From NCBI GenBank assembly GCA_945865725.1, contig CAMBEO010000003.1, positions 5,111 through 69,110 of the forward strand: a DNA stretch of 64,000 nucleotides, read 5' to 3'. Under the pieces are notes generated by a model that worked only from the letters and a program-made list of their open reading frames with translations, had not been told where the DNA came from and did no database searches. Shown here in pieces: positions 1,372-63,572 of the stretch. Origin of the DNA: Thermoflexus hugenholtzii JAD2. Its GTDB lineage: Bacteria; Chloroflexota; UBA11872; UBA12225. Both the position numbers and the translations under genes were made by a program. Position 1 is the first letter of the stretch; each line of letters begins with the position of its first letter.

Positions 1372-1443
1372 GGCCCTCTAGCTCAATGGCAGAGCAGTTG
1401 ACTCTTAATCAATTGGTTCAGGGTTCAAGTCCCTGGGGGGCCA
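1372..1443 (+). tRNA. tRNA-Lys (anticodon CTT)
   Basis: Cloverleaf folded by hand: acceptor GGCCCTC/GGGGGCC, D arm GCTC/GAGC, anticodon stem GTTGA/TCAAT with loop CTCTTAA (U33, CTT, A37), T arm CAGGG-TTCAAGT-CCCTG, discriminator A. CCA is not encoded. Confidence 0.85.
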
Positions 1444-2287: not shown

Positions 2288-2411
2288 CGCCCCTTGCCCC
2301 GTGACCGTCGTACGACGAGACCGGCCCGGGACGCAGGCACCCTGCCGACACCACCGGCAGCGCTCGGGGGCTTCCGTGGCGGAGCCCCCCAGCGTGGTAG
2401 CCGCTGCGCGC

Positions 2412-3353
2412 CTACTCGACCAGCCCGGTCCGGTCGATCGACTCCACGAAGAAGCGCTGCGTGAAGAGGTAGATTGACAGCGGCGGCACGATCACCAGGA
2501 AGACCGCTGCCATGACCAGGGCCTCGTTGAACAACTCGCTTGCCTGACCGCCGGTCGCCGTATCCAACGAGGGCGACAGGACCGACAGTCGCATCGGCAA
2601 CGTGAAGTATTCCATCCGGTTCAAGTAGATGAACGGCTCGAAGAAGTCGTTCCAGTGCCAGACCACGCTGAACAGGAAGACCACCACGACGGCCGGCATC
2701 GCGAGCGGCACCATGATCCGCCACCACGTGCCGAAGGCGCTCGCACCGTCGATGCGCGCCGCCTCCTCGAGCTCCCACGGCAGGGTCTTGAAGAACTGCC
2801 GGAAGACCACGACGAACAGCGCCCCCTTGAGGCCGTGTCCGAAGAAGCTTGGCACCACGAACGGGTTGTACGTGTTGATCCACCCGAGGTTCTTGTACAG
2901 GATGAACAGCGGCACGATGATCGTCTGGGGCGGCACGAGGAACGTGAACAGCACCAGGGCGAACAAGGCGTCACGCCCCGGGAACCGGATGCGCGCGAAC
3001 CCGTAGCCGACAAATGCGCAACTGACCGTCTGCCCGACGGCTGACCCCAGCGAAATATACAGGCTGTTCGAGAGCGACTTGACGTACGCCATCGAGAAGA
3101 ACGCCAACGGGTAGTTGATCCAGAAGAACCCGGACGGGATCCACACGATGGTCGGGTCGCTGAGGTCCTGCGACGTCTTCAGCGACGTGGCCATGATGTA
3201 GAAGATCGGCACGAGAAACACGAACGCGATATCAATCAGTACGAGGTACGTGAACGCCCGCTGCAGGAACGTGATCGACCGGCGGCGAACGATCTGGGGA
3301 TCGCGGTACCACTTCGGGCGCGCGATGAGAAACGGCGTGATCGTGGACGTCAC
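2412..3353 (-). CDS. Carbohydrate ABC transporter permease (MalG-like, CUT1)
   Basis: EAA-loop motif LEEAARIDGASAFGTWWRIMVPLAMP. GTG start at 3353, 1 nt after the upstream permease stop. The 5' part of the longer ORF would overlap the upstream gene. Confidence 0.75.
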   Translation of the reverse strand: MTSTITPFLIARPKWYRDPQIVRRRSITFLQRAFTYLVLIDIAFVFLVPIFYIMATSLKTSQDLSDPTIVWIPSGFFWINYPLAFFSMAYVKSLSNSLYISLGSAVGQTVSCAFVGYGFARIRFPGRDALFALVLFTFLVPPQTIIVPLFILYKNLGWINTYNPFVVPSFFGHGLKGALFVVVFRQFFKTLPWELEEAARIDGASAFGTWWRIMVPLAMPAVVVVFLFSVVWHWNDFFEPFIYLNRMEYFTLPMRLSVLSPSLDTATGGQASELFNEALVMAAVFLVIVPPLSIYLFTQRFFVESIDRTGLVE

Positions 3354-3354
3354 A

Positions 3355-4281
3355 CTAGCCACTGCGGTCCCCCGCGTAAAACACGTACCGGTTCGTGATC
3401 CGCACGACCACGAACAGGATGGCGAAGACGACGATGAAGTAGATCCAGCCAAGCGCCGCGGCGTACCCAAGGCGGAACCCGCCCGCGAACGCCGTCATCT
3501 GGATGTACTCGAGCACGCTATTGAACGTGTCCGTGAAGCTGTCCACGATCGTGTAGACGAGGTTGACCAGGATCACGGGCGACAGCAGGGGCAGCGTCAC
3601 CTTCCAGAACCGGTCCCAGTCTGTCGCGCCGTCGACGCGTGCCGCCTCGTAGAGGACCGGCGACACGCTGTTCAGGCCCGCAAGGAAGATGAGCATCTGC
3701 ACGCCGGTCTTCCAGAGGACGAACAGCAGGCGGTTCAGGAGGTCCGACACCCCCGCCGCGGCATCCGGGCCGATGTACTCGAAGACCAGCTCCTGGATGT
3801 TCACGCCTTGCGAGAGCGTGGCCCCGCCCACTCCCTGCGCGAACAGCTGCTTGATCACTTGCGCGGACCCGATCACCAGCGGCAGGAAGAACACCGCCCG
3901 GAACCCGATCACCCCCTTGATCTTCTGGTTCGCGAGGATTGCCGAGAACAAGCTGAAGATCATGATCACCGGCACGTCGAGCAGGTTGTTCCGCAACGTC
4001 TCCCAGAGGCGCGGCAGGAAGCGCGCGTCGATGACGAACGCCTCCTTGTAATTGTCGATGCCCTTCCACTTCAGGTCGGTCAGGCTTGTCGCCTGCAATT
4101 CATTGAAGCTCAAGAACAAGCTTTGGAACAACGGCCATGCCAGGAACACGAGGAAGCCGATCACCCACGGACTCACGAAGAAGTAGCCTTCAAGCGTGCG
4201 TTGGGTCGTCAAGGACATGCGGCGCCGCCGTGGACCCGCCCCCGCCAGCGCCTCGCTCGTTCGAGCGACCGCGATCCTCAT
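3355..4281 (-). CDS. Carbohydrate ABC transporter permease (MalF/UgpA-like)
   Basis: Six TM segments and EAA motif LYEAARVDGATDWDRFWKVTLP. ATG at 4281 with GGAAGG upstream; ATGA overlap with the upstream GH-like gene. Confidence 0.8.
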   Translation of the reverse strand: MRIAVARTSEALAGAGPRRRRMSLTTQRTLEGYFFVSPWVIGFLVFLAWPLFQSLFLSFNELQATSLTDLKWKGIDNYKEAFVIDARFLPRLWETLRNNLLDVPVIMIFSLFSAILANQKIKGVIGFRAVFFLPLVIGSAQVIKQLFAQGVGGATLSQGVNIQELVFEYIGPDAAAGVSDLLNRLLFVLWKTGVQMLIFLAGLNSVSPVLYEAARVDGATDWDRFWKVTLPLLSPVILVNLVYTIVDSFTDTFNSVLEYIQMTAFAGGFRLGYAAALGWIYFIVVFAILFVVVRITNRYVFYAGDRSG

Positions 4282-6596
4282 CGCCCGCCTGCCTTCCGTT
4301 CAAGGGCATACCCGTACCCGCGCACTTCCGCCCCGTCGGGCGTCCGCCTCGGCTCCGGGTTGTAGTTGACGTACAGGCGCGTGCCGTCCGCGTACGTCAC
4401 GCGGTTGAACTCGCGCGCCAGGATCTCGTGGTTCGTGATCGCCTGTCCCGCGAGAAACCCGAAGGTCTCCCGCATGAAGCGGTACTCGTTCGCCGCCGGT
4501 TCCAACCAGTCGTCGACCTGGCTCGAGTACAGGATGTTGTAGTCCGTTCGGATCAGGTCCGAAGACGGTGCCCAGGTGAGCTGGTACACCGGTTGCAACC
4601 CCCACTCGTACTGGCGGAGCAGCTCCGTCTTCGGGTCGTTCCGGAGGTTCGCCCGCACCGTGTGGCGCACCACCAGGCCCTGCGTCGCGATGTGGTACAC
4701 GGGCACGGCCACGTCGCCGAACGCGTCCAGCGACGCCACCGGCGCGTCGTACACCCGGTCGGTCCGACCGAGGACGTACGCGTTCGGACCCGACACGATC
4801 GCCCCGCCCAGGACCTCGCGCTCCCGGTCCGCCATCTTCATCCAGGTCTCGGCAACCTCCTGGCGCGAGAGCGGGTACCGGTCGTTGGTGTCCGACATGA
4901 CCATCGAGCCCATCTGGCGAAGGTTCACGCCATCGATGCCCATCGCCCGGTGCGTCGGCAAGTCGCGTTCGAGGTAATTGTTGCGGGCGATCACCGGGTT
5001 CAGGAGGTAGATGCCGCCCGACCCCTCGAAGACCGGCAGCTTGTTCACGCCCCGGACGGTGTCCCAGCGCGAGTTGAAGCCGTAGCTCCAGTTCGGCCAG
5101 ATGTTCCGCAGGCCGGGGATCTGCCCGATGATCCCGCCCGACGAGAACGTGTACCCGAACATGTAGTCGTCTTCCAGGATGACCCGCACGCCCAGCTCGT
5201 GCGCCGCCTTGATGAAGGCACGGAGGCCGTCATCCCCGCCCAGGCCGCTCTCGGCCGGGTACCTGCGCGGCCACCGGCCCCGGAAGCCGTCGTCCGCCCA
5301 GCCGATCAGGTGGACGTCGAAGTCCTTCACCCCGCGGTCGATGAACTGCCGGAGGATCGTGACCCCCTGCTCGAACGTCGTCGTCGGCACGAAGTCCTCG
5401 CGGAACGACGTGAGGCGCGTGATGCCCATGAACAGGTCGAGCATCGGGCGCGGCGGGTCGGCCGACACGGGCTTGAGGCCCTTGGCGGTCATGAGGTAGT
5501 CGCGGTAGGCGCGTGCCATCCCCGCGTAGCTGGAGTCATCGCCGGTCAGCAGGACGTACCGGACTTGCCGGTCGCCAGGCAGGCGTTCCTCCTCGATCTT
5601 GTTGACGAACACGCTGCGCCGGCGCGGGATGCTCGCCTGGCGACGGTAGAGGAACTCGGCCGACCCGCGGTTCGCGTTCATGATGTAACCGGCCAGGTAC
5701 GCGTTCACGTTGGCCTGGAACTCGCCTTGGGTCACGATCCCGGCGTAGGCCCCATCCGCGTGCTTCAACCCCCACAGGGGCATCGTGGGGCGCGTGACGA
5801 CCATCCCCGGCCGCCTGGAACCGCCACCGCCCGCGCCGAAGAGGTTGGACGCCACGTCCGGGCCGAAGATCTGGGCGGAGTACCGTTGCCGGTACTGCGG
5901 GTAATCGGGCTTGAACTCGACGATCGCCCCGGCGCCGTCCGGGACCATGACGTAGCCCTTCTCGCCGATGCGTGCCGCGCCGAAGAGGGGAAGCACCTCG
6001 AGTGTCACGACCTTGAAGCAGGTGCCGCTCGTCACCAGCGAGCAGTCGCCGTACTCCTCGATCCCCTTGTCGGGGATGGTGACCTCGAGGAACGGGATGG
6101 GCCGCCCGTCCGGCGCGCGGTCCTCCTTGATCGCGTAATCGACGGCGAGCCGGGTCTTGAACTTGCCGACGTCGTAGGTCGCCCGGAAGCCTCCCGGGCG
6201 TGGCACCACCGTGATCACGGGCTTCTCGGAGTTCCAGGTGAGCAGGTTCGTCATCTGGCGCTTGGCGTTGGTCACGCTCAGCAGGAAGAGCGCGTCCTCC
6301 TGCGAGGCCTTCTGCGCCGCGAGGGGCTCCAGCGGGTTGCTTGCCCACTGCTTCCCGGACCGCCGGTCCTCCACGACGAACCGCGAGTCGGTCACGTTCA
6401 CGTGCAGCCGCAGCGTCGCGGTCTCGGCAACCTGCTCGAAGCCGGCGGGGATCGGGGCGGGCGCGACCGACGATGCCACCTCGGCCCGTGCGGGGAGCGC
6501 AGGCAGCGCCCCGGTCGCGAGGACGGTCACCACCGCCAGCGCGCGCCACGCCACGCGGATCGCGGCCGTTCGTGCCACCCCTGAAAACGTCGTCAT
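4278..6596 (-). CDS. Secreted putative glycoside hydrolase-like protein (TIM-barrel-type; family not resolved)
   Basis: Internal ATG at 6596 with AGAGGA 7 nt upstream gives a clean signal peptide (MTTFSGVARTAAIRVAWRALAVVTVLATGALPALPARA). Upstream 248 codons of the long ORF are Arg/Gly/Pro-rich junk. Co-operonic with sugar permeases. Confidence 0.55.
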   Translation of the reverse strand: MTTFSGVARTAAIRVAWRALAVVTVLATGALPALPARAEVASSVAPAPIPAGFEQVAETATLRLHVNVTDSRFVVEDRRSGKQWASNPLEPLAAQKASQEDALFLLSVTNAKRQMTNLLTWNSEKPVITVVPRPGGFRATYDVGKFKTRLAVDYAIKEDRAPDGRPIPFLEVTIPDKGIEEYGDCSLVTSGTCFKVVTLEVLPLFGAARIGEKGYVMVPDGAGAIVEFKPDYPQYRQRYSAQIFGPDVASNLFGAGGGGSRRPGMVVTRPTMPLWGLKHADGAYAGIVTQGEFQANVNAYLAGYIMNANRGSAEFLYRRQASIPRRRSVFVNKIEEERLPGDRQVRYVLLTGDDSSYAGMARAYRDYLMTAKGLKPVSADPPRPMLDLFMGITRLTSFREDFVPTTTFEQGVTILRQFIDRGVKDFDVHLIGWADDGFRGRWPRRYPAESGLGGDDGLRAFIKAAHELGVRVILEDDYMFGYTFSSGGIIGQIPGLRNIWPNWSYGFNSRWDTVRGVNKLPVFEGSGGIYLLNPVIARNNYLERDLPTHRAMGIDGVNLRQMGSMVMSDTNDRYPLSRQEVAETWMKMADREREVLGGAIVSGPNAYVLGRTDRVYDAPVASLDAFGDVAVPVYHIATQGLVVRHTVRANLRNDPKTELLRQYEWGLQPVYQLTWAPSSDLIRTDYNILYSSQVDDWLEPAANEYRFMRETFGFLAGQAITNHEILAREFNRVTYADGTRLYVNYNPEPRRTPDGAEVRGYGYALERKAGGR

Positions 6597-6643
6597 GGTC
6601 GGGTCCTCTGCCTGGGTACGGGGGAGCGGGACTTGGCTACCTG

Positions 6644-7336
6644 CTAGCGCGTGGTGATCTCGTAGAAGACCTGGTAGAAGAACTCCCAGGTGTTGCTCGA
6701 CAGCGCGAAGACCAGCGAGGCCAGCGCCCAGATGACGATCACCGTCGCCGCGCTGATCGCGTAGGTCGCCATGGTCCGAGCCGCCGAGAAGTCGTGGATG
6801 ACCCGCACGTGCGTGTAGAAGAGGTACGCGACCCAGAACCGGACCCCCGATCCCAGGACCATGAACAGCCCCCGCTCCGGCAAGGTCATCACGTTGGTCA
6901 TGACCAGCACGAGCAGCGGTGCGAGGATGATGTACGGCCCGAAGCTGAAGGCAGCGGTAACGCAAATGTCGCGGAACGACCCCTCGCCGAACAGGATCAT
7001 CGAGACCGCGTAGTGCGCCAAGCACCACGTCACGAACGGGATGACGATGCGCACCCCCTCCTGGAGGATGGAGGTGTCCTCGGGGTTCCCGCCGTACAGG
7101 AACTGGGCCATGCCGAAGGTGAGGGTCCGCGTCACGAGGTCCATCGCCCGCTCGACGGACCACGTCGCCTGGTCGATCGCGAAGAAGGTGAAGTGGAACC
7201 CCATGGTCGCCATCACCAGGCCGCGCGCCGCGATAAGTAACGAGACCACGAACGCGACCGACCACCAGTCCCCGGAGCGCTTCAGCTCCCAGAACCCGTC
7301 CTCGGGATGCAGCGCGACGAACACCATCTGGCGCAT
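6644..7336 (-). CDS. Yip1-domain family integral membrane protein
   Basis: Five hydrophobic helices with a Yip1-like arrangement. ATG at 7336 chosen; an earlier GTG near 7531 would place a repeat element in frame, which is not excluded. Confidence 0.5.
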   Translation of the reverse strand: MRQMVFVALHPEDGFWELKRSGDWWSVAFVVSLLIAARGLVMATMGFHFTFFAIDQATWSVERAMDLVTRTLTFGMAQFLYGGNPEDTSILQEGVRIVIPFVTWCLAHYAVSMILFGEGSFRDICVTAAFSFGPYIILAPLLVLVMTNVMTLPERGLFMVLGSGVRFWVAYLFYTHVRVIHDFSAARTMATYAISAATVIVIWALASLVFALSSNTWEFFYQVFYEITTR

Positions 7337-7449
7337 CCACTTCGTGGAATACCAGCGCGCATCATCGACCGCCCGGCGCCACCCCGTCAGCTCCGTCCGC
7401 CGGTCGGAGGCCCGGTGCACCGGGAACCGCGCCGGATAGTAGGGGACGG

Positions 7450-7500
7450 TGGTGCTTCCCTCTCCCGCCGCAGCGGGGGAGGGACTGAGGGTGGGGGCGC
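7450..7500 (+). repeat. Mosaic GC-rich repeat, module A (CTTCCCTCTCCCGCCGCAGCGGGGGAGGGACTGAGGGTGGGGG)
   Basis: Exact copy of the 42-nt hairpin module that recurs across the window. Confidence 0.9.
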
Positions 7501-7527
7501 TTCCCGTCTCGGCGAAAGTCTCGATCG

Positions 7528-9039
7528 TCACTGGATGCCCCCGCGGTCGTCGAAGCGCATCGACATGAGCGCGGCCCCGATCCGCCGCCCGCCCCACGTG
7601 ACGAGCACGATCAGGCCGATGGCGGCGGGCAGCACCCAGCCAAACTCCTCGCGGATGAAGTCGTGCCTCAACTCGCCGAACGCGAGCGACCAGCCATCAC
7701 GATTGCGGGCGACCTCGTACTCCTGCATCGCCGCCACGTACTCCCCGCGCTTGAAGAAGGCCTTCGCGAGGCCCACGTGCGCCAGCTCGAAGTTGCTGTC
7801 CCGGCGCAAGACCTCGCGCCAGATCGCCTCCGCCTCCTGGTACTTGCCGTCGAAGTGCAGGCGGCTACCTCGGTGCAGCAGCTCCGCGAACTCGGTCGGG
7901 CGGAACGCCTGCACGTTGTTGCGGTTCGCATCCAGGACGTAGATCCGGCCGTTCGGACCGACCGCCAGGCTCTGGGGCAGCTCGAACTTCCCGCGCTGCG
8001 CCCCCCGCCCGCCGAAGATCGCCAGCAAGTTCGCGGACTGGTCGTACTGGTAGACGCGCCCGCTGTTGAAGTCGAGCGCCGACACCATCCCCTGCGAGTC
8101 GGTCGTGACGTCCACGAATTGCGGCTTGACCTGCTGCCCGGCGCGCCACTCGACCTCGCCGTACTTCCGGTTCCCCGTGGTGTACACGTCGTTGCCGATC
8201 GAGTTCAGCTTCTTGATCTGGTCGACGGCACCCAGCGGCGACACGGTGTAGATGAACCCCCGCTCGTCCACGAACATGTTGGCGTGATGCGTCGGCAAGG
8301 TCTTCGAGATCTGCTTCTTCTGCACCTCCGTCGTGAAGATGCGGATCAACAGGCGGCCAAGGTCGAACGTCAGGCGGTTCGCCCCGAAGAAGCCACGGAA
8401 GGTGCCCTCGCCGTCCAAGAGGAAGATCCCCCGGAAGTCACCGCCCCCGTTCAGCACGTAGAGGTATCCCCGACGATCGATCACCACCTTGTTCGGCTGG
8501 TAGACCTGGTCGTCGACGAGGAGCCGGGAGGACGGCTTCCCGAACTGCTTGACAAATTCGCCCGACGGGGTGAACAGGACGACCCGGCCATTGCCCCGGT
8601 CGGCGATCCACACGTCCCCCTGATGGGTGACGAAGACCCCCTCGGGCGCGTTCAGCTTCGCCGGTCCGTCAGGGGTGCCGAACTGCATGACGAACGTGCC
8701 GTCCGCATTGAACTTCAGTACGCGGTTGTTCCCGGTGTCCGCGATCCAGACGAACCCGAGCGAGTCGATGAAGATGTCGGCCGGGTTCTTGAACGTCCCC
8801 GACTTCTGGTACATCCCGTCTATTTCGAAGTCGTAGATGTATGGCAGCGGCGACGCGAGCGAACGGCTGTCCTTGTCGAGCGTCCACGAGTACTCGCGAT
8901 CCGCCGACGCGACGGGTGCGAGGCCCGGGGCCAGGGCAAGGCAGATCGCTGCGAGCGCACCGCCGACCGCCGCGCCCCAAGCACGAAGCCTCGGTGCGTG
9001 GCGAGGGGGCGCCAGAGGGCGTTGTCGCTGCCCGGTCAC
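7528..9039 (-). CDS. NHL-repeat beta-propeller protein with C-terminal TPR-like segment and TM anchor
   Basis: Repeated NHL-like blades (...GFVWIADTGNNRVLKF..., ...GDVWIADRGNGRVVLF..., ...GRIYVLDANRNNVQAF...). GTG start at 9039 forms a GTGA overlap with the upstream permease stop; a signal-peptide-like segment follows. Confidence 0.7.
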   Translation of the reverse strand: MTGQRQRPLAPPRHAPRLRAWGAAVGGALAAICLALAPGLAPVASADREYSWTLDKDSRSLASPLPYIYDFEIDGMYQKSGTFKNPADIFIDSLGFVWIADTGNNRVLKFNADGTFVMQFGTPDGPAKLNAPEGVFVTHQGDVWIADRGNGRVVLFTPSGEFVKQFGKPSSRLLVDDQVYQPNKVVIDRRGYLYVLNGGGDFRGIFLLDGEGTFRGFFGANRLTFDLGRLLIRIFTTEVQKKQISKTLPTHHANMFVDERGFIYTVSPLGAVDQIKKLNSIGNDVYTTGNRKYGEVEWRAGQQVKPQFVDVTTDSQGMVSALDFNSGRVYQYDQSANLLAIFGGRGAQRGKFELPQSLAVGPNGRIYVLDANRNNVQAFRPTEFAELLHRGSRLHFDGKYQEAEAIWREVLRRDSNFELAHVGLAKAFFKRGEYVAAMQEYEVARNRDGWSLAFGELRHDFIREEFGWVLPAAIGLIVLVTWGGRRIGAALMSMRFDDRGGIQ

Positions 9040-9944
9040 GCCTTGATTCCCGAATGTGCCATCGTCTGGATCACCTTCGCCTGCCGGAGGAGGAACACCG
9101 TGATGGTCGGCGCCGTCATGAGGAAGGCCGCCGCCGCTTGAGCGCCCTGCCGGGCGATCGTCGCCGGGCCGTTCGTCAGGCCGATCATCGCCACGCTCAC
9201 CGTCTTCATCGCCTCGCTCCGCGTGAACACGAGCGGGCTGAAGCTGTCGTTCCACAACTGGATGAACCCAAAGATGAGCAACGTGTTCCATGCCGGCGCC
9301 ACGTTCGGCATGACGATCCGCCAGAAGATCGTCCACTCCTGCGCGCCATCGACGCGCGCCGCCTCGATCAACTCGTTCGGCACCGCGTTGTCCATGAACT
9401 GCTTCATCATGAAGAGGCCGTACGACCAAGCGAGCGACGGCAGGATCAGCGCACCGTAGGTGTCGATCAATCCGAGCTTCTGGACGACCAGGTACTGCGG
9501 GATCCGGGTGACCTGCGGCGCAAACATCAGGGCCGCGACGATCGCGCCGAAGATCAGGTTGCGCCCCGGCAGCACCCGCGCCTTCGATAGCGGGTAGGCG
9601 CACATCGAGCACATCACCACTTGCAGCATGACCGTGCAGAGCACGACGAACACGCTGTTGAAGAGGTAGCGCGTGAACGGCACCGACAGCGCGTTCGTCG
9701 CGAAGAGCAAGTCCTGGAAGTTGTCGAGGGTCGGGCGCCGCACAAGGAACGGCGGCGGGAAGAGCAGCAGCTCCTCGAGCGGCTTGAATGCCGTCGAGAT
9801 CACGTACACGATCGGCAGCATCGAGAAGACGGCCATCGGCAGCAGGAAGAGGTACGACGGCGCCGGCGACGCACGGCGGATCGACCGCCAGAGGCGCGGC
9901 AGCGTGTCGTCGTATGCCACCCGTTGCTGGGCAATCGTGGCCAT
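9036..9944 (-). CDS. Carbohydrate ABC transporter permease (MalG-like)
   Basis: EAA motif IEAARVDGAQEWTIFWRIVMPNVAP; six TM segments. Confidence 0.85.
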   Translation of the reverse strand: MATIAQQRVAYDDTLPRLWRSIRRASPAPSYLFLLPMAVFSMLPIVYVISTAFKPLEELLLFPPPFLVRRPTLDNFQDLLFATNALSVPFTRYLFNSVFVVLCTVMLQVVMCSMCAYPLSKARVLPGRNLIFGAIVAALMFAPQVTRIPQYLVVQKLGLIDTYGALILPSLAWSYGLFMMKQFMDNAVPNELIEAARVDGAQEWTIFWRIVMPNVAPAWNTLLIFGFIQLWNDSFSPLVFTRSEAMKTVSVAMIGLTNGPATIARQGAQAAAAFLMTAPTITVFLLRQAKVIQTMAHSGIKA

Positions 9945-9964
9945 CGGTCATCCCTTCCTGCAAG

Positions 9965-10110
9965 TGATCTGGGGGTGGGGCGGTGGTGGTGACGGAGGGT
10001 GGGGGTGGTGCTTCCCTCTCCCGCCGCAGCGGGGGAGGGACTGAGGGTGGGGGTAAGGGTGGTGGTAAGGGTGGTGGTGACGGAGGGTGGGGGCAGTCCT
10101 TCGCTCGCCG
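9965..10110 (+). repeat. Mosaic repeat cluster (modules F-A-F plus 'cagtccttcgctcg' tail)
   Basis: GGTGGTGGTGACGGAGGGTGGGGG flanks module A on both sides. Lies between the two permease genes. Confidence 0.85.
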
Positions 10111-10119
10111 AAACCGACC

Positions 10120-11073
10120 CTAGTACTCGTTCTTGGATGAGAACATGCGCATCAGCAACCGCCCCATGCCGAACGTGAGGGCGAACAGGAAGACCGCCAC
10201 CGTCGTGGCGTACCCCATCTCAAATCGGATGAACGCGAAGTCATACATGTGCGCGACGATCGTGTGGCCGGCGTACAGCGGGCTCGGCAGCCCCGCCAGG
10301 CTCGTCGCAACCTCGAATACCGAGAACCCCGCCACCACCGCCATCACGCTGCCGAACAACAACTGCGGCTTGATCATCGGAAGCGTGATGTACCACACCT
10401 CCTGCAACGGGTTCTTGATGCCGTCCATCTTTCCCGCCTCGTACAGGTCGGTGGGAACCGTCTGCAACCCGGCGAGGAAGACCAGGAACCCCGTGCCCAT
10501 GCTCATCCACAAGGCGACGAACATGATCACCGGCATGATCGCCGCCTGCTCGGCGAGGAACATGTACGGCTCGTCGATCGCCCCGATCCCGAGCAACCAG
10601 TTGTTCAAGTACCCGTAGCGGTCGCCGGAGAAGACGATCTTCCACACCACGCCCATCGCCACCGCGCCGGTGATCGATGGCGCGTAGAAGCACAGGGCCA
10701 GCGGAGTCTTGAGCTTGAGCGGGTTGATCAGCCAGGCGAACATGAACGAGAGGAAGAACCCGATCGGGCCCGTGATGATCGCGAACGTCAGCGTGTTCCC
10801 GATCGCCGTGACGAAGACGTCGTCCTCAAGGAACAGCAACTTGTAGTTGCTCCACCCGATGAAGCGCGGCGCCTCGAGCACGTTGAAGTACGTGAAGCTC
10901 AGCGCCATCGCCGTCACGACCGGGGCGATCACGAAGACCACGAAAAAGGCGAGGAACGGCGCCATGAAGAAGTACGAGGTGCTGTACTTCCGCCACGCGA
11001 GCGCGAAACCAGCGGGCGCCTCCGCCCGTGCGGTCGAAAGCCGGGTTGCAAGCACTTCACTTCCCGTCGCCAT
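10120..11073 (-). CDS. Carbohydrate ABC transporter permease (MalF/UgpA-like)
   Basis: EAA motif LYEAGKMDGIKNPLQEVWYITLPMIKP; TM-rich. Confidence 0.85.
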   Translation of the reverse strand: MATGSEVLATRLSTARAEAPAGFALAWRKYSTSYFFMAPFLAFFVVFVIAPVVTAMALSFTYFNVLEAPRFIGWSNYKLLFLEDDVFVTAIGNTLTFAIITGPIGFFLSFMFAWLINPLKLKTPLALCFYAPSITGAVAMGVVWKIVFSGDRYGYLNNWLLGIGAIDEPYMFLAEQAAIMPVIMFVALWMSMGTGFLVFLAGLQTVPTDLYEAGKMDGIKNPLQEVWYITLPMIKPQLLFGSVMAVVAGFSVFEVATSLAGLPSPLYAGHTIVAHMYDFAFIRFEMGYATTVAVFLFALTFGMGRLLMRMFSSKNEY

Positions 11074-11153
11074 CGCTAGCCTCCCTTATCACCGGCGCAC
11101 CCCGCCGGGCCGCCCCGGGGGACGCGGTCGCCCGCGGACCAAACCCCACCGCC

Positions 11154-14100
11154 TTAGCCACGGCGGTACATCGACCGGTCGACCTTCACGCCGAACTCTT
11201 CCTGCTTCTTCGCGAGCTCCTTGTTGACGTCGTAGATCGCGTCTTCAAGCGCCTCGCGAGGGTTCATGCCCTGCAGGACCACCCGGTTCCACGCGTTCAG
11301 CACGTGTCGGCCGGTGAAGTACCCGCCCAGCACGACTGGTGGCTCCCGGAACCACTTCCACTGCTCCATGATGTTGGCGATGTCGCGCCGGGGCCACGGC
11401 AGTTCTTGCAGCGCCTCGAGGTTGGCGGTGTTCCAGCGGGCCTCGACCCCGATCAGGGCCTCCAGCTCGCCGCCGAAGCGCCGTTGCGCGTCCTTCGAGG
11501 ACCACCACTTGACGAACTCCCAACTTTCCGCCTTGTGCCTCGACTGCTCGAAGATCACCATGCTGGCGCCGGTGCCCCCGCTCGCGCGGATGATCGTCCC
11601 GTCCGGCACGGGCTTGCCGGTCTGGGTGTCGATGCACGGCACGATCGTCCCCATCGAGGTCGTCGACCCGCACCGGTGGCCCGGCATCGGGCGCATCTCC
11701 CACCGCCCGGTCAGCTCCGGCGCCGCGACCGACAAGCTGATGTAGATGCCGTACCCGGCCACGCCGATCGGCTGCTCGCCCGTCCGCATGCGCGTGAAGA
11801 AGTTCGCCTCGCGCGGGATCTTGTAGTTGCTGTAGAGGTCCGTCCACTCCTGGAAGCCCACGAGCGACTCCGGCGAGTCGAGCGCCGACCGGCAGGAGCC
11901 ATCCGTGCAACGGTAGTACTGCCCGCCGTTCTGGAACAGGAACGGCGTGAACCCGACCGCACCCTCGGTCACGGCAACGCCCGTCGGCGGCGGGTAGTAG
12001 AAGTCGAGGCCGGCCTGCTGCAATTTCAGCAGCGCCTCGTACAGGTCATCCCACGTGTCGGGCGGCTTGATCCCCAGTTCCGAAAGGATGTCCGTCCGGT
12101 AGAACGTCATCGCGAAGTCCTGGGTCTCCGGGATCGCCCAGTTCCCCTCCTCCAGCGTGAACGGGACCCGGTACCGGAAGGGGACCAGCGCGCCGTCCCG
12201 GAAGCGCTTCGCGACTTGCGGGTAGTCCGCGAACGTGGAGAGGTTCACCAGCCCCTTGCGGACGGCGAAGTCGACCGGCAGCTGGCTGGGCACGCCGACG
12301 GCGACGTCCGGCGCCTCGCCCGCGGTCGTCGCCAGGAGCAGGACGGACCCCGCGCCTTCCCCGAGGCTTGCGGGCGGGATGACGTGCACGTTCACCTTGA
12401 TCCCGGAGTTCGGCGTGAAGTCGTCCTCGATCATGTCCTTCATGATCTGGCCCCACTCCGTGCCGCGCCCGACCCACACGTCCAGCACGACCTCCTTGGA
12501 ATCCTTGGAGTAACTGCTGCCGAGGCCGGTGTAGTCGCGGGTGAACGACGACAGGAAGGTGGCGAGGCTGGCGTACGCCATCTCGAACATGTTGGCCTGC
12601 ACGCGTGGCAAGGGCGACCGCGCCGAGTGCACCATGAGCCACTCAACCGCGAGCGGATGGTTCTGCATGTGTAGCAGCCAACTGGCAAGGATGCCCTGGC
12701 TACGCAGGAAGTCCTCGAGCAGGCGGTGGATCTCGGCAGGCTTCTCGATCATGCGCTCGAGTTGCGCGCCGACCACCCGGAAGGCCGACGACGCGTCGTT
12801 CTTCGCCCGCCCGATCTCCTCCATGCGCGTCGCCTGCAAGTCCAGGCGGTCGCGCAGCTTGACGAGGCGAGGCACGAGGGTGGGGATCTTCTCGTGAAGG
12901 TCCCACTCCATGTTCACGTCGGGTTGCGAGCCGGTGACCATGAGCATCTCGCGGCTCATCTGGCTCATTTCCGAGAGCATCTGGTCAAGCTCGCGCATGG
13001 TCTCGGACATGAACCCGAGCGTCACCTCCATCTGGATGACGTTCGTGCCCTTTTTCAAGTGGAACAGGTAGGGCGCGCCGTCCGAGGACTGCTCCTCGCG
13101 GATCGTCTCGAGGCGCCAGTCGCGCTCCATCCGGAACAGGATCGCCCGCATCTCCCGGAACGGCATCTCGCCATTGACCCGGAGCGCCCGCAGGCGCGGG
13201 CGTCGTCCCGCCCAACCCTGCCAGATGTTGAAGCTCATCTGGTAGAGGCCCTCCTCGGGGACCTCCACCTCCCACCGCACCCATTGGCCAGGCAGGCGCC
13301 ACCGCCACCAGCCGAACGAGTTCAACGCGAACAGGCCGTCCGCGTACGGGCTTGCCAGCGCGTCGAAGTTCACCTCGCCACGGACGGTCGGGTCGGACTT
13401 GGTGAGCGTCTTCTCGGCCTCGACGCGAATGCCTTGCTTCAGCTCGACCTCGCGGAGGCCCTGTGCCTTCCATGCCTTGAGGCGGTCCGCGTACGTCGGC
13501 ACCACGACCGGGGAATGGATCGTGATGGACCCGAGGGCGATCGTCTCGCGCACGGTCTGGAAGCGAAGCACCTGCACGCCCTTTTCGAACAGGAACTGGA
13601 ACGGCGCGTCATACCTGCCGTCCGCGTCCTCGATCGTCTTGGTCTCCCAGCGCGGCGCTTCAATCTGGGGGGGGCGGACGTCGTTCCCCTGGTTGTCCTT
13701 CTTCGCCTCGGCGGAATCGCGCCAGACGCGATGGAAGACGACCCGTTTCGCTTCCCGGAACGGCAACTTTCCATTGATAAGGAGGTCACGTTGTACGGAT
13801 GCGCGCTTTCCCTTGATCGGGAAGTATTCGACCGTGATTTCGTAGAGGCCCGTCTCCGGGACGGGAACCTTCCACTCGACCCACCCGTCATCCTCCGCCC
13901 AGATGAGGGTCGGGCCTTTCCTGCCCTCGAAGTCCTGCTCGACGCGCAAGCCCTCGTTGCCCCCGCTGGCGGCGAAATCGACGGCGCGGATCTCGATGCG
14001 CTGGCCGGTAGTCGCCTTGTGCTGACGGTCCCAGTCGGCCTTCTGGTCCTGGTAGATCGGCTGGCCCGCGAGGTCCTCGGGAAGCATGTCCTCGAAGAGC

Positions 14101-14348
14101 TTGTCGCTCGGCGGGCGAGCCGCTGGCGCGGCCGGCGGCTGGGCCTGCGACGTCAGCTTGCCTCCCGGCGCCGTGCCGTTCATCGCGGCCGCCCCACGGG
14201 CATCCACGAGCGGCGCCAGCGACGCGCCGACGATCACGATCGCCAGCGCACGGCGCACCCACCCGCTCGCGCGCGCCCCATGCCTCGCCCTTCGACCATG
14301 GATGGCCGAGGCAGCCTGAAGCGCGTCCACGGTGCCGGAATCCTGCAT
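11154..14348 (-). CDS. Giant extracellular solute-binding protein (ABC, family 1) with N-terminal tandem carbohydrate-binding-like beta-sandwich repeats and a coiled-coil segment
   Basis: ATG at 14348 with GGGAGA 6 nt upstream, then a signal/TM segment. Two paralogous repeats (WVEWKVPVPETGLYEITVEYFPIKG...LINGKLPFREAKR and WVRWEVEVPEEGLYQMSFNIWQG...RVNGEMPFREMRA). The C-terminal 450 aa resemble a family-1 SBP. Upstream 290 codons of the long ORF are antisense-like junk. Confidence 0.7.
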   Translation of the reverse strand: MQDSGTVDALQAASAIHGRRARHGARASGWVRRALAIVIVGASLAPLVDARGAAAMNGTAPGGKLTSQAQPPAAPAARPPSDKLFEDMLPEDLAGQPIYQDQKADWDRQHKATTGQRIEIRAVDFAASGGNEGLRVEQDFEGRKGPTLIWAEDDGWVEWKVPVPETGLYEITVEYFPIKGKRASVQRDLLINGKLPFREAKRVVFHRVWRDSAEAKKDNQGNDVRPPQIEAPRWETKTIEDADGRYDAPFQFLFEKGVQVLRFQTVRETIALGSITIHSPVVVPTYADRLKAWKAQGLREVELKQGIRVEAEKTLTKSDPTVRGEVNFDALASPYADGLFALNSFGWWRWRLPGQWVRWEVEVPEEGLYQMSFNIWQGWAGRRPRLRALRVNGEMPFREMRAILFRMERDWRLETIREEQSSDGAPYLFHLKKGTNVIQMEVTLGFMSETMRELDQMLSEMSQMSREMLMVTGSQPDVNMEWDLHEKIPTLVPRLVKLRDRLDLQATRMEEIGRAKNDASSAFRVVGAQLERMIEKPAEIHRLLEDFLRSQGILASWLLHMQNHPLAVEWLMVHSARSPLPRVQANMFEMAYASLATFLSSFTRDYTGLGSSYSKDSKEVVLDVWVGRGTEWGQIMKDMIEDDFTPNSGIKVNVHVIPPASLGEGAGSVLLLATTAGEAPDVAVGVPSQLPVDFAVRKGLVNLSTFADYPQVAKRFRDGALVPFRYRVPFTLEEGNWAIPETQDFAMTFYRTDILSELGIKPPDTWDDLYEALLKLQQAGLDFYYPPPTGVAVTEGAVGFTPFLFQNGGQYYRCTDGSCRSALDSPESLVGFQEWTDLYSNYKIPREANFFTRMRTGEQPIGVAGYGIYISLSVAAPELTGRWEMRPMPGHRCGSTTSMGTIVPCIDTQTGKPVPDGTIIRASGGTGASMVIFEQSRHKAESWEFVKWWSSKDAQRRFGGELEALIGVEARWNTANLEALQELPWPRRDIANIMEQWKWFREPPVVLGGYFTGRHVLNAWNRVVLQGMNPREALEDAIYDVNKELAKKQEEFGVKVDRSMYRRG

Positions 14349-14612
14349 CGCGTCTCCCTGCGGGCGCGGAGCCCCGTACCGGGCGCTCCCCTGGACCTTG
14401 TCCCTGCCCGCTGCAAGCGGCGCCGAGTATAGCGGTGCCCGCCGATGCGCAAGGCGTGACCGCGCGTTCCCGCCCCGCGGCGAACGGGTCGCTATACTGG
14501 CCGTTGGCGCGAATCTATGCGTTCGTGGGCCGGCGTGCAACCTTTCGACGGGACGGCACGCCACCCCGAAACCTCCCTGCCTCGCCGGTCGGCGTTCGCC
14601 CAAGGGGGCGCG

Positions 14613-15185
14613 ATGGTACTTAGCGATCGGTCCATCCGCGCGCTCCTCGCCTCCGGGCGACTGGCCATCGACCCGTTCGACCCTGGCTCCATCCAGCCGT
14701 CGAGCATCGACTTGCGCCTTGACGCGCGCTTCCGCGTGTTCCGCAGCACGCGGTACACGCATATCGACCCGCGCGCCGACCAACCCGACCTTACCGAGCT
14801 GCTGGTCCTGGACGACGCGCACCCGTTCGTCCTGCAGCCCGGGCAGTTCTGCCTCGGCAACACGTTCGAGGAGCTCAGCCTCCCGGACGACGTGGTCGGG
14901 CGCCTCGAGGGCAAGAGCTCGCTCGGCCGTCTCGGTCTCGTCATCCACTCGACGGCCGGGTATGTCGACCCTGGCTTCCGCGGGCGGCTCACGCTCGAAC
15001 TGAGCAACGCCGCCGCCCTTCCCATCCTCCTCTACCCCGGCATGAAGATCGGCCAGCTGTCGCTGATCCAGATGACGACGCCTGCCGACAGCCCGTACGG
15101 GTCCCGGTCCCTCGGCAGCAAGTACCAGGGGCAGGACGAGCCCACCGCAAGTCGCAGCCACCTCGACTTCCGCGACCTTCCCTGA
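14613..15185 (+). CDS. dcd: dCTP deaminase
   Basis: ATG with AGGGGG 5 nt upstream. Full-length similarity to dCTP deaminase (…QPSSIDLRL…[14 protein letters not shown]…). Confidence 0.9.
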
Positions 15186-15246
15186 CGTGGTCGGGCGCCT
15201 CGAGGGCCAGGCCGGCACGGCGCCGACCCTGCGCTATAGTCGGTCA

Positions 15247-16899
15247 ATGCCCTTGCGCGACCGCATCTCGCGACGCCACGCCGGTCGGGCCGTCGTTGCC
15301 GCCAGCGGTGGCCTCCTCGTCGCTTGCCAGACGACCCCGTTCTCCCAGACTTCGGACGACCAGCCGCTCCGGACGTTCCTATGGGATTTCGACACCCTTG
15401 ACCCGGCGTTTACCGCTGGGGCCATCGAGGCCGAGTACGTCGTCCACCTGTTCGCCGGCCTGACAAGCCTGAACGAGAAGCTCGAGGCCGTGCCCGACCT
15501 CGCCGAGAAGTGGGCGGTGTCGAGCGACGGGCGCACCTACACCTTCACTTTGAGGCGCGGCGCCAAGTTCCATGATGGTCGGCCGATCGTCGCCGCCGAC
15601 GTGAAGTTCAGCCTCGAGCGCGCCGCTGACCCTGCGATCGCTTCCCCGGTCGCCCTGACCTACCTCGGCGACATCCAGGGCTTCGCCGCCCGCCAGTCCG
15701 GGCGCGCGCCTTCCGTCTCCGGCATCAAGGTGCGTGACGACGCGACCATCGAAATCGTCCTCGACGAGCCGCGGACCTACTTCCCGTCGAAGTTGACGTA
15801 CCCCGTGAGTTACGTCGTCGACGAACGTGACGTCGCGCGGGGCGCCCGCTGGTGGCTCACGCCCAATGGTTCGGGACCGTTCAAGGTCGCCAGCCTCATC
15901 CCGGGCGAGCGCTTCTCGCTGGTGCGCCACGAGGGGTACCACGGGACCAAGCCCGCCCTCGTTGGCGTCGACTACCTTGCCGTGCCCCCCGTCGAGGCGT
16001 ACGAGCACGGGATGATCGACATCGCGGCCGTCGACCTCGCCGACATCGACCGGGTCACCGACAAGAGCGACCCGCTAAATCGCGAGTTGCGCGTCCGTAC
16101 CGACCTCGACATCCAGTACCTCGCGCTAAACGTCACCGCCAAGCCGTTTGACGACCCGAAGGTGCGGCAGGCGTTCAATCACGCCCTTGATCGCGACCGC
16201 ATCGCCACGGTCACCCTGAAGCGCACGGTGATCAAGGCCGACGGGATCCTGCCCCCCGGCATGCCCGGGCGTGGCGACCGCGTACGTGGCCTGGACTACG
16301 ACGTCTCGCGCGCTCGGCAGCTCGTCGCCGAGTCCAGCTATCGCGACGTGCGGAACTTCCCAGAGATCTCGCTCACCGTCATGGGCTCGCGTACCGCACC
16401 CGCGCCCGAGGTGAACGCGATCATCGCCACCTATCGCCAGAGCCTCGGGGTTGACGTGCGCGTGCGCCAGCTCGACCGGGACGCGTTCCTGGCGGCGACG
16501 CAACGCGAACGCGACCGGCCCCAGATGTTCATGACCGGGTGGATCGCCGACTACGCCGATCCCCAGAACTTCCTCGACATCCTCTTCCATAGCCGCAGCC
16601 GCGAAAACGTCTCGCGCTACGCCAGCCCCGACGTCGATCGCGACCTCGAACGGGCGCGTGCCGACCGGGACAATGCCTCGCGGATGCGCGTCTACCAGGA
16701 CGTCGAGGCGCGCATCTTGCAAGACGCGCCATGGGTGCCGCTGTGGCACAACAAGCGCTACGTCCTCGTCAAGCCCTGGGTGCAAGGCTATGCCGCGCCC
16801 GCGATCATCCAGCCTTGGCTGAAGGCGGTCTCGCTCAAGGGACGCCCGCCGCTCGTCGCACCCGCTGCACCCACCCCGACCGCACCTCGCCGCGCCTGA
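15247..16899 (+). CDS. ABC transporter substrate-binding lipoprotein, family 5 (peptide/nickel type)
   Basis: Lipobox LLVAC after the ATG at 15247. Family-5 SBP fold-level similarity over the full length. No cognate permeases adjacent. Confidence 0.8.
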   Translation: MPLRDRISRRHAGRAVVAASGGLLVACQTTPFSQTSDDQPLRTFLWDFDTLDPAFTAGAIEAEYVVHLFAGLTSLNEKLEAVPDLAEKWAVSSDGRTYTFTLRRGAKFHDGRPIVAADVKFSLERAADPAIASPVALTYLGDIQGFAARQSGRAPSVSGIKVRDDATIEIVLDEPRTYFPSKLTYPVSYVVDERDVARGARWWLTPNGSGPFKVASLIPGERFSLVRHEGYHGTKPALVGVDYLAVPPVEAYEHGMIDIAAVDLADIDRVTDKSDPLNRELRVRTDLDIQYLALNVTAKPFDDPKVRQAFNHALDRDRIATVTLKRTVIKADGILPPGMPGRGDRVRGLDYDVSRARQLVAESSYRDVRNFPEISLTVMGSRTAPAPEVNAIIATYRQSLGVDVRVRQLDRDAFLAATQRERDRPQMFMTGWIADYADPQNFLDILFHSRSRENVSRYASPDVDRDLERARADRDNASRMRVYQDVEARILQDAPWVPLWHNKRYVLVKPWVQGYAAPAIIQPWLKAVSLKGRPPLVAPAAPTPTAPRRA

Positions 16900-19329: not shown

Positions 19330-19548
19330 CAGGCCTCCCGGCCGCCGCATCCCGACCGCCGGACGTCGTGGGTCTCCCTGGAGGCCGGTCGATGGGAGAC
19401 TTGCGCCATTCAGGTGCGAGACGGCAGTCCCTGGCCCGACACGCCGTCGGCGCGGGAGTATACTTCTACCCCTGCGCGCGACATTGGCGCGACTGCCCGC
19501 GTGGCGCCGCCAAGGTGACGCGCAACTCGACGGGGCCGCATCGCCAGC

Positions 19549-20128
19549 GATGGACGACTACCACCCAGCCGACCGCCCGTACCCGAGTCCTGCGACGCAG
19601 CGACGCACGGGAGAGATCTGGAAGGCTCGCCTTGGCCTCGGGTTCGTCAGCGCGCTGACGCTCGTGAGCGCCGCCGTGATGTTTCGCCTCGCCGGGCTCG
19701 GGATCGGGGCGGCGGTGAGCCCGTTCCAGTCGGCGGCCCCGACCTCCACGACGGTGGGCGGGGCTCGCGGAACCGTGCTCGCATCGTCAGCCTCGTTGAC
19801 CGCAACGCCGGGTCCGGGCGCGACCTTCGCTCCCGCCGGGGCATCGCCTTCGCCTTCCCCGAACCGGACCCTCGTACCCGGCCAGTCGACCACGCCGGTG
19901 CCCGGCCAGTCGAATCCGATCACCCCCCAGGTGACCGGAACGCCGATGCGGTCGCCCACGGCCACGCTAGTCACGGTCGCCACGCGTGAACACGCGGTCG
20001 CCTCGGGTGACACCCTCGGCGCGATCGCCGTCCGGTATGGAACGACCGTCGACACGATCGTCCGCTTGAACGACTACAAGGACCGGAACCAGACGCTGAA
20101 CATCGGGCAGAAGGTCAAGGTGCCGTAG
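19549..20128 (+). CDS. LysM-domain peptidoglycan-binding protein with N-terminal TM segment
   Basis: C-terminal LysM (VASGDTLGAIAVRYGTTVDTIVRLNDY...LNIGQKVKVP) after a Pro/Thr/Ser-rich linker. Start is uncertain (ATG 19549, weak RBS). Confidence 0.5.
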
Positions 20129-20279
20129 GCGCACCAATCGGGTCGCGTGTCGCTGGTACCCTCCTCCGAAGCCGGTCGTACGCGTCCGAGTGATCGCCTC
20201 TAACCCGAGCATCCTTCCTTCCCGTTCGGACGGTCTGACCGACGTCCCGCGCGGGGCACGCCCGACAGGAGACCCCACC

Positions 20280-21179: not shown

Positions 21180-21204
21180 GCGCCTGGCCGCGCGAGGGCG
21201 GGCG

Positions 21205-59633: not shown

Positions 59634-59669
59634 CCGGTGGCGCGCCCCTTCCCGACGGGAGCCCAGACC

Positions 59670-62459: not shown

Positions 62460-63572
<1,113 letters not shown>

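Follow-up and report, generated by a model that had tools for sequence, protein, structure and literature searches.

An eight-gene cassette with two CUT1-type permease pairs, NHL and Yip1 proteins and a DUF5696 protein in Thermoflexus hugenholtzii JAD2 is conserved across bacterial phyla

Introduction

Type I ATP-binding cassette (ABC) sugar importers are usually described as a solute-binding protein (SBP), two permeases and two ATPases. A locus of Thermoflexus hugenholtzii JAD2 (Chloroflexota) raises the question of what a sugar transporter would do with a good deal more than this. Between positions 2412 and 14348 of the stretch of DNA analyzed here (64,000 nucleotides [nt] of contig CAMBEO010000003.1, hereafter the window), a single run of genes encodes a giant SBP, two pairs of MalF- and MalG-like permeases, an NHL-repeat propeller protein, a Yip1-family membrane protein and a secreted protein of family DUF5696. 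An initial annotation of the window described this run as a composite sugar utilization locus. We asked whether these genes belong together and what kind of system they might form.

Results

Eight close-packed genes on one strand

Open reading frame (ORF) listing, translation and Pfam and NCBIfam scans placed eight close-packed genes on the minus strand, reading from 14348 to 2412, and the same eight were returned by an independent gene caller run on the source contig, a metagenome contig of 92.7 kb (ENA ERZ27280224, k141_925993). Gene A (11154-14348; 1064 amino acids [aa]) encodes the giant SBP, in which the Pfam match to SBP_bac_1 covers only aa 630-955. It is followed by a first translocator, made of a MalF/UgpA-like permease with six transmembrane (TM) segments (gene B; 10120-11073, 317 aa) and a MalG/UgpE-like permease (gene C; 9036-9944, 302 aa). 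Gene D (7528-9039, 503 aa) encodes an NHL domain with a TPR-like segment and a C-terminal TM helix, gene E (6644-7531, 295 aa if its start is GTG 7531) a Yip1-domain membrane protein, and gene F (4278-6596, 772 aa) a DUF5696 (PF18952) protein with a signal peptide. The order closes with a second translocator, again a MalF/UgpA-like permease (gene G; 3355-4281, 308 aa) and a MalG/UgpE-like permease (gene H; 2412-3362, 316 aa); BPD_transp_1 was matched in all four permeases. Several of the genes overlap. The stop codon of C and the GTG start of D share the sequence GTGA, the D stop and E start form a second GTGA provided that E starts at 7531, the F stop and the ATG start of G share ATGA, and the first 8 nt of H coincide with the end of G. 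The remaining spacers measure 80 nt (A-B), 175 nt (B-C) and 47 nt (E-F).

Much of this had been described before. The eight-gene minus-strand order of the initial annotation was borne out by the ORFs, the domain scans and the independent gene caller, and the GTGA coupling of the NHL gene start to the first permease pair was seen as the C-D overlap. The reading of the locus as one of the carbohydrate ABC transporters of the CUT1 (carbohydrate uptake transporter 1) type was also right, given its SBP_bac_1 domain and four BPD_transp_1 permeases, as was its treatment as a single operon. The same held for the statement that no ATPase is encoded locally and that a MalK-like gene lies at 62.5 kb: by ORF and sequence, a 370-aa MalK/MsiK/MsmX-type ABC ATPase is encoded at 62460-63572 on the minus strand.

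The same gene order recurs in at least five phyla

A scan of one genome per GTDB species with a DUF5696 alignment yielded 77 loci, whose six-frame ORFs were searched with the eight window proteins. The complete gene set was present in 56 of the 77 loci. In 52 of these the genes lay on one strand in the order A-B-C-D-(E)-F-G-H, and the other 4 showed the circular permutation D-F-G-H-A-B-C. A further 18 loci were cut by contig ends, yet they agreed with one of the two orders; the permuted order was found in 6 loci in total (4 complete and 2 cut by contig ends). The remaining three loci deviated, with F alone in L073, no G-H in L070 and no A-B-C nearby in L053. When loci were reached via distant NHL homologues rather than via DUF5696, three of three lay in the same cassette.

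Carriers of the cassette were found in Chloroflexota (Thermoflexus-like relatives at 79-83% identity, Anaerolineae and Caldilineaceae), Bacillota (many Paenibacillus, plus Clostridia, Lachnospiraceae and Oscillospiraceae), Dictyoglomota (Dictyoglomaceae), Spirochaetota (Spirochaetaceae) and Mycoplasmatota (Izimaplasma and Acholeplasma; loci L064, L068 and L071). Since the same order recurs in so many loci from several phyla, the arrangement is far beyond chance, and the eight genes are one ancient, conserved cassette present in at least five phyla, not a chance juxtaposition. The initial description as a composite locus was consequently not sustained, as a seven- or eight-gene order is conserved across five phyla. 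A always stood immediately before B-C, and D(E)-F always immediately before G-H; because this adjacency is fixed even in the permuted loci, it points to two modules traveling together. In one long-read metagenome contig (L083:12411-16161), two genes, those for DUF5696 and for the second MalG-like permease, are interrupted so that each reads as two ORFs, through either a frameshift error or cassette decay.

In the searchable literature, with subscription journals outside its coverage, we found no description of this cassette and no paper mentioning DUF5696, PF18952 or IPR043751, and combinations of Yip1, NHL, SBP and ABC transporter returned nothing relevant.

NHL and Yip1 form one fused protein in many loci

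The NHL domain of D was matched with 65 bits in Pfam (cutoff, 20), together with TPR_16 and TPR_19. The protein is made up of a signal peptide or N-terminal TM segment, a six-bladed NHL propeller, a TPR-like stalk at approximately aa 384-460 and a TM helix at aa 466-484, ahead of which lies a highly conserved juxtamembrane motif. Hydropathy placed the propeller and stalk outside the cell, between the N-terminal signal or anchor and the helix at aa 466-484. Protein E matched Yip1 (PF04893) with 42.6 bits in Pfam (cutoff, 28.6) and has four to five TM segments. The window, its close relatives and other loci, 37 in all, encode NHL and Yip1 in two adjacent genes. In at least 33 loci, NHL-TPR-TM and Yip1 form a single ORF of ∼700 to 720 aa, and many database proteins of 680 to 720 aa combine PF01436 with PF04893. 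NHL and Yip1 thus correspond to the halves of a single protein, Yip1 being the C-terminal one, and belong to the core of the system rather than being add-ons. It had been noted at the outset that the two are not standard CUT1 components and that their role in the operon is open; the fusions make them core parts of the cassette.

We modeled a fused homologue, P0136 from Limnochordia (45% identical to D), with AlphaFold2 (AF2), which gave a predicted local distance difference test score (pLDDT) of 90 and a predicted template modeling score (pTM) of 0.78. The model starts with an N-terminal helix, after which come a six-bladed propeller (residues 32-360), five helices that form the stalk (362-443), a long TM helix (445-471) and a helical Yip1 membrane domain with helices between 509 and 683. 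The top Foldseek matches of the propeller were NHL domains of the binding type, namely, TRIM71, Thin, Brat and the PknD-derived Pizza propellers, with TM-scores of 0.75 to 0.79 to the TRIM71, Thin and Brat targets. The first enzyme among the matches, Vgb lyase, appeared at rank 45. We also considered the propeller as a lactonase or lyase. The Pfam matches to SGL and Vgb_lyase were sub-threshold fragments and the enzyme structures ranked far below the binding-type NHL domains, and this candidate was rejected.

The start of E has three candidates, GTG 7531 (overlapping the D stop), ∼7421 and ATG 7336, the last of which would leave a repetitive extragenic palindrome (REP)-like element upstream of the gene. 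A start at ATG 7336 is weakened by close relatives that keep the motif PYYPARFP upstream of 7336, and because of this conserved motif the start stays ambiguous among the three positions. The REP-like element (7438-7518) lies inside the N-terminal tail of E, in frame if translation begins at GTG 7531.

DUF5696 resembles the GH129 enzymes in fold

Gene F encodes a full-length DUF5696 protein (E 3.5e-132; 442 bits against a cutoff of 25.6; positions 9-612 of the 612 in the Pfam model). The family comprises 3,880 clusters at 50% identity and E ≤ 1e-30, and the orthologues that we inspected carry signal peptides, signal anchors or lipoboxes. Conserved acidic residues of F are E181, D220, D569, D613 and E664. 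Among 156 diverse representatives, position 569 is D or E in 88%, D613 is kept in 73% and E664 in 99%.

An AF2 model of F built from 47 homologues (pLDDT 87.6, pTM 0.89) shows an N-terminal β-sandwich, a (β/α)8 barrel and a C-terminal β domain. DagB, a glycosidase of the glycoside hydrolase (GH) family 129 or GH129-like group, is composed of a β-sandwich, a TIM barrel and an Ig-like domain (PMC5698469), and the secondary structure of the F model follows the same order. When the model was compared with the PDB by Foldseek, the top match was the GH129-like 3,6-anhydro-D-galactosidase of Zobellia (5opq; E 2.6e-33, TM-score 0.62/0.72), followed by NagBb (5wzr; E 4.8e-29) and then by GH101, GH31 and GH36 enzymes. 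A DUF5696 sequence profile run against PDB sequences likewise retrieved GH129, with E values of 5.5e-15 and 1e-13, and identity between F and the GH129 structures was 14-16%. These comparisons of sequence and model suggest that F is a distant GH129-like putative glycosidase. They support, by structure and profile searches, the secreted GH-like enzyme of the initial annotation, which had missed its identity as DUF5696. Since the GH129 fold is shared but similarity at the family level of sequence failed, DUF5696 falls outside GH129 and is a candidate for a new GH family.

Substrate binding and translocation

The SBP domain of A occupies aa 620-1064, with Pfam matches to SBP_bac_1 (E 2.9e-21) and SBP_bac_8 (E 4e-12) over aa 630-958, and is distantly like the CUT1 oligosaccharide-binding proteins Lin1841 and TMBP. 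Ahead of it, an N-terminal extension of ∼500 aa is kept in every locus; it contains two tandem domains of ∼170 aa each, after which comes a region of ∼130 aa. A profile of the extension searched against the PDB matched family 35 carbohydrate-binding modules (CBM35), with E values of 1.4e-7 for that of CITase (5x7g), 4e-4 for 2w47 and 0.011 for 2vzp; Pfam gave no CBM match in A, and NCBIfam had no model for A, E or F. Protein A is thus laid out as a hydrophobic segment that serves as N-terminal signal or anchor (aa 30-48), a first CBM35-like domain (∼aa 117-285; nt 14000-13494, minus strand), a second CBM35-like domain (∼aa 300-470; nt 13451-12939, minus strand), a helical or coiled-coil region whose profile matches only coiled-coil proteins (∼aa 474-615) and the SBP domain. 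The giant SBP of the earlier description is confirmed, with the addition of the two CBM35-like domains and the helical region, which account for the extra 600 aa of the protein and which it had missed.

All four permeases are BPD_transp_1 proteins of the UgpA-UgpE and MalF-MalG-like kind in Pfam and NCBIfam. Their EAA loops read YEAGKMDG in B, IEAARVDG in C, YEAARVDG in G and EEAARIDG in H. Across 63 to 72 orthologues per permease family (63 for the loop of B), the key positions of the loop are kept, with E in 93-98%, G in 97-100% and P in 95-98%. Within the window, B and G matched each other with only 57 bits and C and H with only 100 bits, which ruled out a recent tandem duplication of the permease pair. 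Each of the four also has a separate orthologue, in the corresponding position, in the other loci. Because of these low scores and the separate positional orthologues, we regard the two pairs as ancient paralogues.

The ATPase gene of the window lies 48 kb from the locus, and no ATPase gene lies within it. An ATPase encoded in trans is usual for the CUT1 systems of Gram-positive bacteria. In five related loci, a MalK-type ATPase gene immediately precedes that of the giant SBP in the same orientation, at ∼1500-2840 in each, and its product scores 375-411 bits against the MalK-type protein of the window. This nine-gene version (L041, L042, L048, L049 and L058) occurs in Paenibacillus foliorum, P. 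tarimensis (two loci), P. piri and one metagenome-assembled genome (MAG) of Spirochaetaceae. Since the ATPase gene is the first gene of the cassette in these five loci, it can belong to the cassette, and OB_MalK and TOBE_2 domains are present among the cassette neighbors. The MalK-type ATPase of the window is a candidate for energizing both translocators.

Genomic neighbors of the cassette

Next to the cassette, 28 of the 77 loci and each of the three NHL-seeded ones (at least 31 in total) have an ordinary SBP of ∼460 aa. Among 103 immediate neighbors examined, 17 were SBPs and only 2 were histidine kinases. The ordinary flanking SBP was absent from the Chloroflexota loci, and no homologue of it was found in the window. 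It may work with translocator G-H, or it could be a sensor SBP like that of the CuaD system (PMC10384115). GH43 and GH32 each accounted for 7 of the 103 neighbors, and GH3, GH5, GH95, GH127, sugar kinases and LacI-type and AraC-type regulators also recurred, including in Bacillota. In Pseudogracilibacillus auburnensis (L082), the cassette is flanked by genes for an aldose epimerase, GH43, GH127 and an FGGY kinase (428-2447 and 18039-21482), which hints at an arabinose-containing glycan in that lineage, and several Lachnospiraceae loci instead have multiple GH32 genes. Inference of a substrate from the neighbors was dropped, as GH32, GH43, GH127, GH3, GH5 and GH95 vary by lineage.

Locus boundaries and repeats

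Upstream of A, a divergent intergenic region of 266 nt (14349-14614), presumed to hold the operon promoter and the 5′ untranslated region on the minus strand, separates the cassette from dcd. The latter, identified by DCD Pfam families, starts at ∼14615 on the plus strand. At the other end, a hairpin cluster lies directly 3′ of the H stop codon (2340-2411, minus strand; RNA fold −47.7 kcal/mol, z = −3.2). It has no U-tract and is likely the 3′ end of the transcript, and the gene downstream of it is convergent. A sigma-70 promoter scan returned 0 sites, the dcd-A spacer included, a terminator scan gave fewer matches than its shuffled controls, and Rfam showed no RNA element in the operon or its leader. 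In the window, the interval from dcd to the convergent gene downstream contains no regulator gene. Just past dcd, and outside the conserved cassette, is a gene for an SBP_bac_5 binding protein of the peptide/oligosaccharide type (15187-16899, plus strand), and ∼1 kb past the 3′ end of the operon is a tRNA gene (1372-1443, plus strand; 69 bits in Rfam).

The window also carries several repeats. A palindromic element resembling REPs or miniature inverted-repeat transposable elements (MITEs), with the core CTTCCCTCTCCCGCCGCAGCGGGGGAGGGA, is present in 11 copies in 64 kb against 0 expected. Nine copies are on the plus strand (7455, 10011, 17732, 17814, 32678, 36719, 41898, 53858 and 53901) and two on the minus strand (57334 and 57439). 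Two fall within the operon, one in the N-terminal tail of the Yip1 ORF and one in the B-C spacer (9945-10119, minus strand), which carries the REP-like element at ∼9994-10106. A tandem 12/18-nt repeat, (CACGGGCACGAC)n at 60525-60662, encodes a His-rich (DHGHGH)n insert in the ORF at 59637-61229 (plus strand), which we take to be LarC/DUF111-like from a reading of its N-terminal sequence. Two 66-nt direct repeats (25158-25223 and 25710-25775), 88% identical and 552 nt apart, may be an internal duplication in a coding region.

Discussion

The conserved order and the domain content suggest that the cassette is very probably one integrated carbohydrate ABC import system. As an account of the whole, we favor with moderate confidence, from sequence and models, a machine that captures glycan at the cell surface, cleaves it and imports the products with two translocators and a propeller-Yip1 scaffold. 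Such a machine would be of the CUT1 ABC type and would sit at the outer face of the cytoplasmic membrane in single-membrane bacteria. The membrane-tethered protein A would capture polymeric or large oligomeric glycan through its two CBM35-like domains, kept off the membrane by the helical stalk. Captured glycan would then be cut outside the cell by the secreted DUF5696 enzyme, which we predict to be a distant GH129-, GH101- or GH31-type enzyme and most likely a retaining α-glycosidase or transglycosidase. The products could be passed by the SBP domain of A to translocator B-C, a proposal made because A is always directly ahead of B-C. Translocator G-H would import a second product, its binding partner being the ordinary-size flanking SBP in many Bacillota or else A again. 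The NHL propeller on its TPR stalk, together with the Yip1 membrane domain (approximately six TM segments), might act as a nonenzymatic scaffold or assembly factor that holds together enzyme, binding protein and both translocators. The resemblance of the propeller to binding-type NHL domains is in keeping with such a role, which would be comparable to that of the Yip1 protein YknW in modulating how the ABC exporter YknXYZ is assembled (PMC4887032). Finally, a shared MalK/MsiK-type ATPase would power both translocators.

The specific scaffold role of the propeller-TPR-Yip1 protein, drawn by analogy, is rather doubtful when taken on its own. We also entertain, as a possibility somewhat short of even, that the cassette represents an undescribed class of multicomponent type I ABC importer. 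In such a fixed "utilisome," the NHL-Yip1 protein would couple a CBM-bearing SBP and the founding member of a new GH family (DUF5696) to two cooperating translocators, the second of which would possibly be fed directly by the enzyme-scaffold unit and not by a classical SBP.

Several points weigh against the glycan import machine outlined above. Its whole mechanism was assembled from sequence, models and synteny, and the roles given to the second translocator and to NHL-Yip1 as a scaffold are conjecture. HMMER aligned the DUF5696 profile to GH129 only in its N-terminal half and at its C-terminal end, over positions 64-462 and 689-744 with ZgGH129 and 332-523 with NagBb, and left the second half of the barrel unaligned by sequence. 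Because of this gap and the 14-16% identity, the conserved catalytic Asp of GH129 (D435 of NagBb, which corresponds to D486 of DagB) and the acid/base residue could not be placed in DUF5696, for which D569, D613 and E664 are candidates. In the window, a single local SBP faces two translocators. The Chloroflexota loci, that of the window among them, sit amid housekeeping genes (dcd, IleRS, radical SAM, FtsK and RNase J) and have no regulator. The GH families next to the cassette differ between lineages, so that no single substrate can be named.

Other explanations account for parts of these data. Two complete permease pairs with a single SBP, and the six permuted loci, whose order D-F-G-H-A-B-C shows two separable modules, are what one might expect of two independent CUT1 transporters assembled with unrelated NHL, Yip1 and enzyme genes into no functional unit. 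This explanation is hardly credible, and the synteny effectively refutes it: the same families stand in the same order in most loci and across several phyla, the NHL-seeded loci show the same cassette, the start/stop overlaps span the supposed module borders, and the permease pairs are old paralogues that fall into separate orthologous groups. That the NHL-TPR-Yip1 protein is instead a sensor or regulator, whose propeller senses glycan in the manner of PknD and gates the transporters or the ATPase through the Yip1 domain, would fit its structural neighbors (PknD-derived Pizza propellers and other ligand-binding NHL domains), the conserved juxtamembrane motif ahead of the TM helix and the Chloroflexota loci without a local transcriptional regulator. 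We nonetheless consider it unlikely, as none of the loci has an output domain (kinase, cyclase or DNA-binding) fused to the protein or next to it and LacI-type or AraC-type regulators already adjoin the cassette in many Bacillota.

The cassette might also serve turnover or remodeling of surface glycan that belongs to the cell itself (exopolysaccharide, S-layer or wall glycan), with reimport of the fragments, rather than external foraging. The housekeeping flanks of the Chloroflexota loci, with no other GH genes or regulators nearby, are in keeping with such a role. It appears quite improbable when set against the foraging-type neighbors in Bacillota and other phyla (GH43, GH32, GH3, GH5, GH95, GH127, sugar kinases and LacI/AraC regulators) and against the presence of the cassette in wall-less Mycoplasmatota. 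The position of D(E)-F ahead of G-H, where an SBP gene usually stands and which is kept in the permuted loci, would in turn agree with DUF5696 as a nonenzymatic glycan-binding receptor that replaces the SBP for translocator G-H. The overlap of the F stop with the G start, the GH129 catalytic pair that could not be aligned and the lack in the window of any second SBP besides A as a cassette partner (no homologue of the flanking type was found) point the same way. However, type I ABC importers need a class-specific SBP fold to trigger ATP hydrolysis, DUF5696 has the full GH129-like three-domain architecture with near-invariant acids in the barrel, and at least 31 loci have an ordinary SBP beside the cassette, all of which makes a receptor very improbable. 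We therefore retain surface capture, cleavage and import of glycan as the best explanation of the whole.

To the usual importer set, the cassette adds a second translocator, an SBP fused to CBM35-like domains, a putative extracellular enzyme and a Yip1-propeller protein. Were the system worked out, DUF5696 would gain a function and could found a new GH family, bacterial Yip1 proteins would gain a second, testable role with ABC transporters, and we would learn how bacteria that have no outer membrane organize the capture, cleavage and uptake of polysaccharides. The question is directly testable because cultivable Paenibacillus species carry the cassette, among them P. rhizosphaerae (CECT 5831), P. 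favisporus (DSM 17253) and P. tarimensis (bc-1).

Among known systems, the cassette is comparable to the CUT1 importers (MalEFGK2/UgpBAEC, TC 3.A.1.1), those of Gram-positive bacteria being energized in trans by MsmX/MsiK. With them it shares the SBP_bac_1 domain and the MalF-like and MalG-like permeases with EAA loops (present twice, in B/C and G/H); its candidate ATPase, of the MalK type with an OB/TOBE tail, is encoded elsewhere in the window. It differs from them in having two permease pairs in one operon, an SBP of ∼1,000 aa with two CBM35-like domains and a helical stalk, and two obligatory further proteins, NHL-TPR-Yip1 and DUF5696. DUF5696 shares a three-domain architecture with GH129 and GH129-like glycosidases, which include the α-N-acetylgalactosaminidase NagBb and the α-1,3-(3,6-anhydro)-D-galactosidase ZgGH129/DagB, with GH101, GH31 and GH36 further away, but differs from GH129 in its 14-16% identity, its separate Pfam family, its secretion and its embedding in a transporter cassette. 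Like YknW of the YknWXYZ system of Bacillus, E is a Yip1-family membrane protein encoded with an ABC transporter (PMC4887032). However, YknWXYZ is a MacB-type exporter with a membrane-fusion protein, whereas the partner in the cassette is a type I importer, and YknW has neither the propeller nor the TPR ectodomain of the NHL-Yip1 protein. The propeller itself resembles the extracellular NHL sensor of PknD and the NHL domains of TRIM71 and Brat in being six-bladed and free of an obvious catalytic site, but it is carried on a TPR stalk and a Yip1 domain and not on a kinase or a RING/B-box protein. In function, the closest analogues would be the polysaccharide utilization loci (PULs) of Gram-positive bacteria and the SusCD utilisome of Bacteroidota, which likewise co-encode glycan binding, an extracellular glycosidase (putative in our case) and a dedicated transporter. 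Unlike the SusCD utilisome, the cassette has no SusC/D and involves no outer membrane, and while typical PULs are highly variable and include a regulator, the composition of the cassette is fixed across phyla and its locus in the window has no regulator.

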